IMG/VR virus record: IMGVR_UViG_2526164604_000025 | DNA: 13,895 bases | DNA from: a virus | Taxonomy: Duplodnaviria; Heunggongvirae; Uroviricota; Caudoviricetes | Direction: 5' to 3' (one strand) | In this document: piece after piece, positions 899-13,397 of the stretch | Numbering within the stretch: position 1 is the first letter of the stretch | Layout of the letters: each line of letters starts with the position of its first letter | Program-made: the position numbers and the translations under genes | The notes under the pieces: generated by a model | Seen by the model: only the letters and a program-made list of their open reading frames with translations | What the model was told of the DNA's origin: nothing | The model's database searches: none

Positions 899-3544
899 AT
901 GGCAGGTAATTTTGCCGATCTGACAGCCGTGCTGACACTGGATTCTGCCCGTTTTTCTGAAGAGGCAGCGCGGGTAAAAAAAGAGCTGGGTGAAACCAGT
1001 GCGCTTGCTGATTTGATGTCCGGGAAAGTCAGTCAGTCTTTCAGAAAACAGGCTGATGCTGCTGAGCAGAGTCTGAGCCGACAGGCGCTGGCGGCACAAA
1101 AAGCCGGGATATCAGTCGGACAGTATAAGGCTGCCATGCGCACACTGCCCGCACAGTTCACGGATATTGTCACTCAGCTTGCCGGTGGTCAGAATCCCTT
1201 CCTTATCATGCTGCAGCAGGGGGGGCAGATCAGCGATTCATTCGGTGGACCGCTCAGCCTGCTTACCCTGCTGAAGGAGGAACTTCTCGGGATCAGGGAT
1301 GCCTCTGAATCATCAGAGGAGTCGCTGTCAGATACGGCAAATGCACTGGCTGAAAATGCCCGGAATGCCGGTGAGCTGGGACGATTTATGTCGGTGGCCC
1401 GTGTGGCGGCAGGTGGCGGGGTTGCCGTACTGGCCGCGCTTGCTGCCGCCGCCTGGCAGGCAGAGCAGGCTGACCGGGCCTTATTGCGTTCACTGATCCT
1501 GACCGGAGGGGCGGCTGCCACCACAACGGCAGAATTGTGGAAAATGGCCGGGGTGATCAGCGATGAAGCCGGTGGTGGTATCAGACAGGCGGCAGAAAAT
1601 CTGGCCCGTCTGGCAGAAAGCGGGAAATATACCGCCGGGCAGCTACGGATCATGGGGGAAACCTCTCAGAGATGGCTGCAGACGGTGGGGGACGATGCCG
1701 GGAAGGTGGAAAAAGCCTTTGAAGGGATTGCAGCAGATCCGGTGAAGGCGCTGGCCTCCCTGAATCAGCAGTATAACTTCCTGAGCGTTTCCCAGTTACG
1801 CCATATTGATGAGCTTGAGCGCACGAAAGGTAAACAGGACTGCGGTGACGGAGGCGATGTCCCTGTTTGCGGATGTCATGAATGCACGTCTGGAGCAACT
1901 TGATAAAGCGGCCACGCCGGTGGAAAAAATCTGGGACGATGTTAAAACCTGGACTTCTGACGCATGGGCATGGATAGGTGATCATACACTGGGGGCACTC
2001 AGTCTGATCACTGACGTGGTGGCCGGAACCGTTGAACAGGTGAAGCTGCTGCTTGTGCAGGGGGATCTGGCGCTGGCTGAATTTATTCAGTCAGCCTGGG
2101 AAACGACAAAGAATGTGCCCGGCGTTGGTGCGTTGTTTGGTGAACTGGCAGAAGAGAACCGCGTATTTATTGAGAAAACAAAACGTGATGAACTGGCGCT
2201 GAGAAAATCCATTGCGGAACGGGATGCGCGTATACGCCAGGGGGAAATGGGGTACATCAACCGTTCGCGTGCAACAGGCGTCAGCAAAGGTCCGGGGCAG
2301 CAGGAAGCCGTCAGCCGTCTGGCTGAAGAGCTGACAGGTAAAAAGCATACATCACCGAAAACGCGCTCTGCCGGGGAGAGGGAAGAGGAGCAGGCAAGAG
2401 AGGCTCTGCTTGCCCTTGAAGCTGAGCTCAGGACGCTGGAAAAACACAGCGGTGCGAATGAGAAAATCAGCCGGCAGCGCCGTGATTTATGGAAGGCGGA
2501 AAGTCAGTATGCGGTCCTGAAAGAGGCTGCCACGAAACGGCAGTTATCTGAGCAGGAAAAATCCCTGCTGGCGCATAAAGACGAGACGCTGGAGTACAAA
2601 CGCCAGCTGGCTGAGCTGGGAGACAAAGTTGAACACCAGAAACGGCTGAATGAGCTGGCACAGCAGGCTGCGCGGTTTGAGCAGCAGCAGGGCGCGAAGC
2701 AGGCGGCAATCAGTGCCCAGGCGCGGGCCTCACCGACCGTCAGGCGCAGCGGGAGTCGGAAGAGCAGCGCCTTCGTGACGTGTACGGTGATAATCCGGAT
2801 GCGCTGGCGAAGGCCACATCTGCACTGAAGAACACCTGGTCTGCGGAGGAGCAGCTTCGTGGAAGCTGGATGGCCGGGCTGAAGTCCGGCTGGGGCGAGT
2901 GGGCGGAAAGTGCGACGGACAGTTTTTCGCAGGTTAAAAGTGCTGCCACGCAGACCTTTGACGGTATTGCACAGAATATGGCGGCGATGCTGACCGGTGC
3001 AGAGGCAGACTGGCGGGGATTCACCCGTTCGGTGCTGTCCATGCTGACAGAGATTTTTCTGAAGCAGGCGATGGTGGGGATAGTCGGGAGTATCGGCAGC
3101 GCCATTGGCGGTGCTTTCGGTGGTGGTGCGTCTGCCTCCACGGGGACGGCCATTCAGGCTGCGGCGGCGAACTTCCATTTCGCGACCGGGGGATTTACGG
3201 GGACGGGGGGTAAATATGAACCTGCGGGAATTGTTCATCGCGGGGAGTTTGTCTTCACGAAGGAAGCAACCAGCCGGATTGGCGTCGGCAACCTGTACCG
3301 CCTGATGCGGGGCTATGCGGAAGGTGGTTATGTGGGTGGTGCCGGAAGTCCGGCGCAGATGCGGCGGACGGAAGGCATTAATTTTAATCAGAACAATCAC
3401 GTGGTGATTCAGAACGACGGCTCCAACGGACAGGCGGGGCCGCAGCTGATGAAGGCGGTGTATGACATGGCCCGCAAGGGGGCGCAGGATGAGATTCAGG
3501 CGCAGATGCGTGATGGCGGCGTCTTTTCCGGAGGCAGGCGATGA
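899..3544 (+). pseudogene. tail tape measure protein (lambda gpH-like), reading frame broken twice in this sequence
   Basis: Three consecutive ORFs (890..1903, 1806..2828, 2780..3544) each match successive parts of lambda gpH: the N-terminal SLSRQALAAQKAGISVGQYKAAMR, the middle ALLALEAELRTLEKHSGANEKISRQRRDLWKAESQ, and the C-terminal MAGLKSGW...FHFATGGFTGTGGKYEPAGIVHRGEFVFTKEATSRIGVGNLYRLMRGYA. Frame changes lie near 1841 (+1) and near 2725-2727 (-1, in a G run). Likely true start is ATG 899 after AGGAGG at 885-890. Confidence 0.85.
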
Positions 3545-3870
3545 AAACATTTCGCTGGAAAGTGAAGCCGGATATGGAGGTGAACTCGCAGCCATCGGTG
3601 CGTGAAGTGCGTTTTGGTGACGGGTATTCGCAGCGTATGGCGGCGGGGCTGAATGCTGACCTGAAAACATACCGTGTGACGCTTTCCGTGACCCGGGAGG
3701 AGGCCCGACATCTGGAGGCATTCCTGGCAGAGCACGGTGGCTGGAAGGCGTTTCTGTGGACACCGCCTTATGCCTGGCGGCAGATAAAGGTGACCTGTGC
3801 CGCCTGGTCATCACGGGTTCGCATGCTGCGGGTTGAATTCAGTGCCGAGTTTAAGCAGGTGGTGAACTGA
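3541..3870 (+). CDS. minor tail protein M
   Basis: 109-aa ORF MKTFRWKVKP...RMLRVEFSAEFKQVVN, near-collinear with lambda gpM. Its start overlaps the H stop (ATGA) and its stop overlaps the L start (TGATG). Confidence 0.9.
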   Translation: MKTFRWKVKPDMEVNSQPSVREVRFGDGYSQRMAAGLNADLKTYRVTLSVTREEARHLEAFLAEHGGWKAFLWTPPYAWRQIKVTCAAWSSRVRMLRVEFSAEFKQVVN

Positions 3871-4568
3871 TGCAGGATATTCACGAAGAAAGTCTGAACG
3901 AGTCGGTTAAATCAGAGCAGTCACCGCGGGTGGTGCTCAGGGAAATTGACCTGACGGTGCAGGGCGGTGAGCGGTATTTTTTCTGTAATGAGCTGAATGA
4001 AAAAGGGGAGGCGGTCACCTGGCAGGGGCGGCAATATCAGGTATACCCGATTGACGGCAGCGGTTTTGAGATGAACGGGAAGGGCAGCAGTGCCAGACCG
4101 TCGCTGACGGTGTCCAATCTGTTTGGTCTGGTCACCGGGATGGCGGAGGACCTGCAGAGCCTGGTGGGGGCCACGGTGGTCCGCCGCCGGGTGTATGCCC
4201 GTTTTCTGGATGCGGTGAATTTTGTGGCGGGCAATCCGGAAGCGGACCCGGAGCAGGAGCTGAGCGACCGCTGGGTGGTGGAGCAGATGTCAGAGCTGAC
4301 GGCCATGACAGCCTCGTTTGTGCTGGCCACACCGACGGAGACGGACGGAGCGCTGTTTCCCGGTCGCATTATGCTGGCGAATACCTGTATGTGGACCTAC
4401 CGCTCTGATGAGTGTGGTTACACGGGCGGGGCTGTGGCGGATGAGTTCGATAAACCCACCACCGATATCCGTAAGGACAGATGCAGCAAGTGCATGCGCG
4501 GGTGTGAGATGCGCGGCATGGTGGCTAATTTTGGCGGTTTCCTTTCCATTAATAAACTTTCGCAGTAA
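3870..4568 (+). CDS. minor tail protein L
   Basis: 232-aa ORF matching lambda gpL in length and sequence, including the C-terminal Cys-rich region (CSKCMRGCEMRG). Confidence 0.9.
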   Translation: MQDIHEESLNESVKSEQSPRVVLREIDLTVQGGERYFFCNELNEKGEAVTWQGRQYQVYPIDGSGFEMNGKGSSARPSLTVSNLFGLVTGMAEDLQSLVGATVVRRRVYARFLDAVNFVAGNPEADPEQELSDRWVVEQMSELTAMTASFVLATPTETDGALFPGRIMLANTCMWTYRSDECGYTGGAVADEFDKPTTDIRKDRCSKCMRGCEMRGMVANFGGFLSINKLSQ

Positions 4569-4578
4569 ATCCCGGTTT

Positions 4579-12521: not shown

Positions 12522-12534
12522 CCGACAGCTTCAC

Positions 12535-12561
12535 AAAACCGGAGTCCGGCTCCGGTTTTTT
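12535..12561. terminator. hairpin with T-run between the small ORF (+) and the effector gene (-); possible bidirectional terminator
   Basis: AAAACCGGAG-TCCGG-CTCCGGTTTT perfect 10-bp stem followed by TTTTTTG on the + strand, with an A-run on the other side. Confidence 0.55.
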
Positions 12562-12645
12562 GTTGGTTAGATGTAATCTGACAGATACCTGTATAAATAA
12601 CCGGTAACTGTCAGGTCAGAGCTAATATAGGTAATTATATTATAA

Positions 12646-13397
12646 TCACGAGCGCTTAGATGTATTAATGCCATGCTCTGCAAGATGCTGCATCAGACGC
12701 TGAGCCACATCAGGCAAAGGTCTTGATTGTTCATTTTGTACTGGCGGCGTTGGCGCAGGCCAGTTAGGTGCCGGAGGAATATGTTCAGCCATATTCCGGG
12801 CTGGTTGAATGCCATGCTCTGCAAGATGCTGCATCAGACGCTGAGCCACATCAGGCAAAGGTCTTGATTGTTCATTTTGTACTGGCGGCGTTGGCGCAGG
12901 CCAGTTAGGTGCCGGAGGAATATGTTCAGCCATATTCCGGGCTGGTTGAATGCCATGCTCTGCAAGATGCTGCATCAGACGCTGAGCCACATCAGGCAGA
13001 GGTCTTGATTGTTCATTTTGTACTGGCGGTGGTGGCGCAGGCCAGTTAGGTGCCGGAGGAATATGTTCAGCCATACTCCGGGCTGGTTGAATGCCATGCT
13101 CTGCAAGATGCTGCACCAGACGCTGAGCTACATCAGGTAGAGGCCGATGTAAAGCGTTTTTTTCTATACTTGACTGAGTATAAGATGTGGGACGTTGAAG
13201 TCCTGATTCTGTATAAGAATTTTTTACCTTAAAAATAGTTGTTGCACTGGCAGGACTGTTGCTGGGAGAAAAAGGTGAGCTGGTTTTTACCGTGTTAGGT
13301 GTGCTTTTGTGCTGCGAGACAGTGAAGGTACTGCTGCGTATAGCACTTGATATACTGCGAGGAAGGCCGGAAAAAAAGAATTAATGCTATTTATCAT
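12646..13397 (-). pseudogene. tccP2: TccP/EspFU-family type III secreted effector (Tir-cytoskeleton coupling protein), most likely tccP2; frame-disrupted as it stands
   Basis: Minus-strand repeats read IPPAPNWPAPTPPVQNEQSRPLPDVAQRLMQHLAEHGIQPARNMAEH (three and a partial) ending HLAEHGINTSKRS, the hallmark repeat of TccP/EspFU. The N-terminus MINSINSFFPAFLAVYQ starts at ATG 13397-13395 but hits a stop at 13289-13287. The repeat frame is open from 13380 and carries the linker STFTVSQHKSTPNTVKTSSPFSPSNSPASATTIFK. A 1-nt indel near 13336-13346 separates the two. The track ORF 12646..13116 begins at an internal GTG. Confidence 0.8.
12665..13140 (-). repeat. 141-bp direct tandem repeat array, about 3.4 copies, coding for 47-residue proline-rich repeats
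   Basis: Near-identical units begin at about 12670, 12811 and 12952, with a partial fourth from 13093. The period of 141 bp equals 47 codons. Confidence 0.9.

Follow-up and report, generated by a model that had tools for sequence, protein, structure and literature searches.

Inherited and probably spurious frame changes in the tail module of an Sp4/CP-933M-family prophage of Escherichia coli O157:H7 TW10119

A tail module and cargo region beside serT

The viral record IMGVR_UViG_2526164604_000025 of IMG/VR is a stretch of 13,895 nucleotides (nt), referred to as a whole as the window, and corresponds to bases 3-13897 of contig AKMA01000014.1 in the draft genome of Escherichia coli O157:H7 TW10119 (GCA_000267185.1). 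It is the tail-module and cargo end of a lambdoid prophage of the Sp4/CP-933M family, lying beside serT-hyaA, and the map of open reading frames (ORFs) together with annotated homologues gives the gene order G-T-H-M-L-K-I-sodC-J-lom-stf, followed by a gene for the C-terminal domain of the tail fibre, tccP2, and espV. Five single-base frame changes interrupt this region, and we propose that they form two classes: two that are real and inherited, in a G run of the tape measure gene H and in the type III effector gene tccP2, and three, at 1839 in H, at 5295 in K and at 12264-12270 in the fibre C-terminal gene, that are most likely errors of the draft consensus. A mixed explanation of this kind, with two real changes and three that are most likely draft errors, is the one that we consider likely to be correct.

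The draft dates from 2012. Accession AKMA00000000 holds TW10119 as 56 contigs, from a project whose genomes are either Illumina-only or hybrids of Illumina and 454 reads, the hybrids being assembled with Celera (PMC3593324); the low contig count suggests that this draft is one of the hybrids. The window starts two bases inside the contig, which itself begins within the prophage, between V and G, and the contig runs on past the window into hyaA-F and then appC. Over contig positions 12669-20228 (7,560 nt), which comprise the right end of Sp4 and its flank, the sequence is 100% identical to that of Sakai without a single difference, and over positions 13101-20228 (7,128 nt) it is 100% identical to that of FDAARGOS_293. 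The window thus shares with Sp4 of Sakai and CP-933M of EDL933 its site, as judged by serT and hyaA, its gene order, and its right end and flank, and the cargo set of these prophages is found in it as sodC, lom, a tccP2 pseudogene and an espV remnant. A source outside O157:H7, considered in view of a best whole-window match of 98.8%, was rejected: mosaic structure and patchwork segments lower the match, and the host is the same. The comparators named below include FDAARGOS_293 (L001), a strain with an intact H (L002), LSU61 (L004) and VT1-Sakai (L009).

A preliminary description of this DNA had listed four single-nucleotide frame changes, two in H, one in K/I and one in the effector gene, among otherwise intact genes. 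Each of the four is present and can be located to the base, and G, M, L, J, sodC, lom and stf are all open, the sequence of stf itself being a patchwork. Absent from that list was the fifth change, a reduction of A8 to A7 at 12264-12270. Whether the indels sit in homopolymers had been proposed as a check; the G run at 2725-2727 and the T run of tccP2 do, and 1839 and 5295 do not. Reversing the changes in silico restores an H of 881 amino acids (aa), a K of 247 aa with an I of 193 aa, and a TccP2 of 250 aa.

Frame changes shared with other genomes

The tape measure gene H (899-3544, plus strand; 2646 nt) is divided among three ORFs, at 899-1903, 1806-2828 and 2780-3544, with the Pfam family TMP_2 matched on the first piece and Tape_meas_lam_C on the last. 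At 2725-2727 a run of four G residues is reduced to three (window, GGCGCGGGCC; LSU61, GGCGCGGGGCC), and this change taken alone brings a stop at codon 643 of 881. The G3 state recurs in complete genomes, with 201 nt across the site 100% identical in ATCC 43894, TT12B, PNUSAE146743 and CDC#03-98 and also in FDAARGOS_293, and these 201 nt are matched exactly in 4 of 40 rows sampled evenly over 971 matching records. One further draft locus (L024) has G3, and G4 of the same allele is present in LSU61, whose H is intact, and in three loci of IMG/VR (L078, L102 and L163); the Prokaryotic Genome Annotation Pipeline (PGAP) labels H as frameshifted in both ATCC 43894 and FDAARGOS_293. Since several complete genomes have the same state and the G4 version of the allele exists, the comparison identifies the G4-to-G3 change as a genuine, inherited mutation of one O157:H7 sublineage. 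In Sakai, F8092B and F6321, H is of a different allele and is intact.

By itself, the inherited slip shortens the tape measure protein to 642 of 881 residues. Because such a truncation drops Tape_meas_lam_C, we infer that this copy of the prophage is unable, unaided, to measure or complete a tail, which fits the known defective state of Sp4. Although documented as a defective lambdoid prophage, Sp4/CP-933M still undergoes excision and packaging, aided by other prophages (PMC2669165). In Sakai Sp4 the defects are ISEc8 within nu1 and the loss of the segment that runs from the capsid gene to V; the contig analysed here starts at G and leaves the head and packaging genes outside. H is intact in Sakai Sp4, in contrast to the G-run frameshift of the sublineage to which the window belongs, and the window differs further in its private indels and its patchwork stf.

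The espF-like type III effector gene tccP2 (12646-13397, minus strand) is a pseudogene with a stop at codon 37. Gene positions 21-27 form a T7 run (the plus-strand A run at 13371-13377), compared with T8 in intact alleles, and adding one T restores 250 aa. Of 40 records sampled evenly, 21 match the 141 nt across the site at 100% identity; nine of these are labelled O157:H7 and the rest have no serotype label. In O55:H7, O26, O111 and O145, by contrast, the same segment has the extra base (142 nt, T8). In the tccP2 pseudogene ECs1126/Z1385, carried on Sp4/CP-933M, a single T/A deletion at position 28 with a premature stop was established experimentally (PMC2884950), and the window has the same position-28 deletion and the same early stop. 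As the deletion is both reproduced in many independent genomes and published, we read the T8-to-T7 change as this real, inherited and already published pseudogene mutation.

The number of 141-nt proline-rich repeats in tccP2 also varies, the gene being 752 nt long in the window, F8092B and F6321 and 1034 nt in FDAARGOS_293 and ATCC 43894. At 12667-13143 the window has two fewer repeats than the latter two strains, and this deficit is either real variation in repeat number or a collapse. Beyond tccP2, espV (13722-13895, minus strand) leaves the window end as a pseudogene remnant; its coordinates were transferred from FDAARGOS_293, in which PGAP annotates a stretch 100% identical to this one.

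Frame changes private to the TW10119 draft

For the remaining three changes, we searched the homologous places in 5,426 complete E. coli genomes with 101-nt queries (1,440 places for 1839, 4,911 for 5295 and 6,226 for the A run), and none of these places has the state seen in the window at 1839, at 5295 or in the A run. The uniqueness of the exact protein products was judged over an index of 153 billion gene positions.

Position 1839 is an extra A in H, in the context AACAGG[A]CTGCGG and outside any homopolymer, and the original frame (frame 2) stops 64 nt on, at 1903. The best of the homologous places is 99.0% identical over 100 nt, that is, without the extra A, and 30-mers searched in IMG/VR give 0 matches with the extra base and 55 without it. 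An exact match to the truncated 334-aa H product occurs on AKMA01000014.1 only. The possibility that the +1 change at 1839 and the -1 change in the G run compensate one another, leaving the gene at its length of 2646 nt, was rejected, as the shifted frame stops at 1903.

The second private change, at 5295, adds a C close to the 3' end of K and likewise lies outside a homopolymer (ACAACGA[C]TTTGG). Here K and I form a single fusion ORF of 440 aa (4579-5901, plus strand), whose product consists of K residues 1-239, an 8-aa linker (FGRRLSLY) and the complete 193-aa I, with Prok-JAB, NLPC_P60 and Lambda_tail_I all matched on the one product. The best of the homologous places lacks the extra C, 30-mers match IMG/VR 0 times with it and at least 120 times without it, and the 440-aa product, too, is matched exactly on AKMA01000014.1 only. 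From 3721 to 6928 the window has zero substitutions relative to FDAARGOS_293, and from 5296 to 6928 zero differences.

The third change, A8 to A7 at 12264-12270, lies seven codons into the fibre C-terminal-domain gene (12253-12521, plus strand; ATG at 12253), which normally encodes 89 aa; the frame is lost after codon 6, and an 82-aa ORF is left from an ATG at 12273. Every sampled homologous place in the complete genomes spans 102 nt, corresponding to A8 or A7C, with the window state in 0 of 6,226, and the 82-aa product has its exact match on AKMA01000014.1 only. The only other A7 is in a draft prophage (L017; IMGVR_UViG_2548876964_000009) at about 12502 on the minus strand, where it is either a recurrent real slip or a recurrent homopolymer miscall. 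That prophage is an unrelated one, 94-96% identical to the window, and its L gene is frameshifted too.

Each private indel lies inside a block that is otherwise identical to FDAARGOS_293, with the flanking sequence free of indels, and the segments containing 1839, 5295 and A7 are found at 4, 8 and 14 places, respectively, in the genome of O157:H7 PV15-279. Were the three changes errors, H would have one real frameshift, K and I would be separate and intact, and the 89-aa fibre gene would be intact.

Private features of the window were sought by a 21-mer comparison against about 190 fetched loci, which gave 2 substitutions, 2-3 indels of 1 nt, one 18-nt deletion and several new junctions in stf. 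The substitutions, the only two that are private, are at 7874, in codon 374 of J, and at 12304, in codon 11 of the 82-aa fibre ORF. The N-terminal-domain gene of the side tail fibre, stf (10953-12251, plus strand; 432 aa), is open, and its best match in the 5,426 genomes is just 96.9%. Its 5' part is built of blocks: 10846-11180 is identical to a paralogue of another prophage, adjoining nleB2 in Rafaela_II, 11181-11477 follows a third allele, and the rest is that of Sp4, with junctions at 11181, 11267-11291 and 11457 that were not found in any other locus compared. At 12041-12048 stf has a private 18-nt in-frame deletion relative to every comparator, across which no complete genome of those searched matches, and which could reflect either genuine contraction of a repeat or collapse in the assembly.

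The remaining tail and cargo genes

The ORF map, the Pfam matches and the PGAP names at homologous loci confirm a collinear lambda-like siphovirus tail module, G-T-H-M-L-K-I-J. The order is that of the G/GT, H, M, L, K, I and J genes of phage lambda, and the lambda families matched are Phage_TAC_2, Phage_tail_T, TMP_2/Tape_meas_lam_C, Phage_min_tail, Phage_tail_L, Prok-JAB with NLPC_P60, Lambda_tail_I and the GpJ domains; unlike lambda, the window has an interrupted H, joined K and I, and inserted cargo in the form of sodC, tccP2 and espV. The tail assembly chaperone gpG (98-520, plus strand; 140 aa, Phage_TAC_2) is intact, and its exact protein is present on many other contigs. As in lambda, a slippery heptamer, A AAA AAG, is found at the end of G (496-502, plus strand), 18 nt ahead of the G stop and with the T ORF in the adjoining frame; by analogy with lambda G/GT, it is likely the site of a normal programmed -1 frameshift between G and T. 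Differences in G at 184, 212 and 237 seemed private in a first panel of loci and proved to be real alleles after more loci were added.

The gpT gene (547-855, plus strand; Phage_tail_T) is of a short type, with 102 aa where Sakai Sp4 has 137 aa, and the H downstream is longer, with 881 aa rather than 859 aa. PGAP calls the T homologue incomplete in both L001 and L002. T is equally long in VT1-Sakai (309 nt), and several other contigs have a 102-aa T. Because these sequences share the T length, the short T and long H look like a distinct G-T-H module, not damage. Positions 1-2400, comprising G, the short T and the 5' end of the 881-aa H, form a module unlike that of Sakai Sp4 and match the serT prophage of FDAARGOS_293. 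Positions 1-2400, as against 2403-13137, also differ in module from Sp4 of ATCC 43894, which like that of Sakai is deleted from the capsid gene to V. Since the left 2.4 kb differs from Sakai and ATCC 43894 and matches FDAARGOS_293, the serT prophage appears, on these alignments, in at least two left-arm versions within O157:H7.

Of the other tail genes, gpM (3541-3870, plus strand; 109 aa) and gpL (3870-4568, plus strand; 232 aa) are intact by their ORFs and Pfam matches. The cargo gene sodC, for a Cu,Zn superoxide dismutase (6092-6619, minus strand; 175 aa), is intact and identical in DNA sequence to sodC of FDAARGOS_293. J, for the tail tip or host specificity protein (6753-10226, plus strand; 1157 aa), has an intact ORF, and its exact protein is unique to AKMA01000014.1. 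The cargo gene lom, for an outer membrane protein of the Ail/Lom type (10294-10893, plus strand; 199 aa), is intact.

In a panel of about 180 fetched loci, broken copies were found for H (4/15), J (9/33), K (11/130), L (8/116), I (3/60) and M (1/82), and for none of 43 G genes. Broken tail genes are thus frequent in related prophages, and as such those of the window are unexceptional. Shared stop positions among the broken K genes of this panel suggest several independent, inherited lineages of K pseudogenes. J is frameshifted in LSU61 (L004, 16129-19605), in a sodC-carrying prophage that lies by tccP/espJ and not at serT, and is split in VT1-Sakai (L009, 6638-10110), the Stx1 prophage of Sakai.

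Origin of the private changes

Spontaneous mutation in E. coli produces roughly ten substitutions per indel. With private indels in a ratio of at least 1:1 to private substitutions, the window has the reverse of this spectrum, and the ratio is in that respect unnatural. Real divergence at the locus, moreover, is close to zero, since the 7.1-7.5 kb of right end and flank contain 0 differences. The location of the private indels in multi-copy segments, the near-zero real divergence, the indel-rich ratio, the patchwork stf and the contig end within the prophage together point to artefact, and the changes at 1839, 5295 and 12264-12270 are most likely errors of the draft consensus. The pattern resembles that of consensus errors in drafts with collapsed multi-copy prophages, in having private indels and new junctions in multi-copy segments, a contig end in the prophage and a clean right flank; it differs in its two non-homopolymer insertions and in the lack of a paralogue variant that would explain them. 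Searches for an independent assembly of TW10119 by its exact proteins (J, K-I, the N-terminal fragment of H and the 82-aa fibre product) returned the same NCBI contig only.

Several points weigh against this reading, which we hold as probable on circumstantial evidence. Of the three private changes, two insert a base where there is no homopolymer, unlike the classic 454 error. At 1839 and 5295 no comparator has a paralogue variant that could have merged into the consensus; all of them have the same sequence minus the base. A redundant copy of the tail genes in a defective prophage would be under no selection, and real private mutations in it are possible; a mutation unique to TW10119 is also compatible with its absence from other strains. 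The A7 in L017, seen once, could mean a recurrent real slip. Two candidate mechanisms of error were set aside. Merged paralogue variants as the origin of the bases at 1839 and 5295 are unsupported, with no single-nucleotide polymorphism at either site in the comparators, and false-positive 454 flows were dropped as non-discriminating, since with the flow order TACG any non-neighbour base fits.

The best-surviving alternative, unlikely in our judgement, is that all five frame changes are real and that the TW10119 copy has decayed further than those of its relatives: H would have a second frameshift, K and I would be fused and the fibre gene would be shifted in frame, all through mutations that are neutral in a redundant and already tail-defective element. 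The element was already defective in its lineage through the H G-run deletion, the defects of Sp4 are documented, the panel has many broken copies of H, J, K and L, and the private substitutions at 7874 and 12304 are present as well. Such decay would, however, require three de novo indels in 13.9 kb next to 7,560 nt with 0 differences from Sakai, and at least one private indel per private substitution. It would also place the insertions at 1839 and 5295 outside homopolymers, and non-homopolymer insertions are rare as spontaneous events. Finally, it would confine all three private changes to multi-copy segments, and this in a draft in which stf is plainly patchwork.

A more specific version of events, which we find somewhat more doubtful still, is that the extra C is real and yields a natural single-chain K-I protein for tail-tip assembly, combining JAB/MPN, NlpC/P60 and Lambda_tail_I domains, together with a second real frameshift in H. 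If true, the K-I chain and the second H frameshift would show a redundant prophage copy in the course of a strain-specific erosion that is unusually fast.

That all the frame changes are sequencing artefacts, and the split gene calls should be merged, is highly improbable. The source is indeed a 2012 draft, to which three of the five changes are private; H G3 and tccP2 T7, however, are reproduced in many independent complete genomes obtained with other technologies and with annotated frameshifts, and the tccP2 deletion was established experimentally (PMC2884950), which refutes this explanation for both sites.

The least credible proposal is that the homopolymers (H G3/G4, fibre A7/A8 and tccP2 T7/T8) are on/off contingency tracts or that programmed recoding explains the changes in H and K/I. 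In its favour, short homopolymers hold three of the five changes, and the same region has one programmed-slip site, G-T at 496-502. Against it, T7 is found in all sampled O157:H7 and T8 in other serotypes, such that tract length tracks lineage and is constant inside it, and the H G3/G4 split shows a like consistency in the few assemblies that were checked. Efficient slippage needs runs longer than 3-4 G, and 1839 and 5295 have no slippery motif, the shifted H frame stopping 64 nt later. Phase variation at the homopolymers was rejected on the same lineage distribution of the tccP2 tract and the same consistency of H.

Discussion

The preliminary description left two accounts of the frame changes side by side, real decay of a cryptic prophage and sequencing artefact, and each turns out to apply to part of them. 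Decay is borne out for the H G run and tccP2, by many independent complete genomes, and probably does not extend to 1839, 5295 and A7; artefact is probable for 1839 and 5295, which no other sequence searched has, and does not hold for the H G run or tccP2. Its picture of a tail-defective prophage kept with intact cargo needs similar qualification: sodC and lom are open, but tccP2 and espV are pseudogenes, and H is intact in the Sakai version of this prophage. The decay of the prophage is genuine, and only half of its cargo is intact. The real changes are already known or annotated, and the pattern is an ordinary one that advances no open biological question.

For annotation, neither the second break in H nor the K-I "fusion protein" nor the 82-aa fibre gene should enter databases or biological argument unless supported by reads. 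H and tccP2 are better annotated as pseudogenes, the latter being a textbook marker of the O157:H7 lineage. Draft contigs that end inside the lambdoid prophages of O157:H7 can hold private indels and patchwork alleles, and comparison with complete genomes quickly separates inherited decay of these prophages from artefact.

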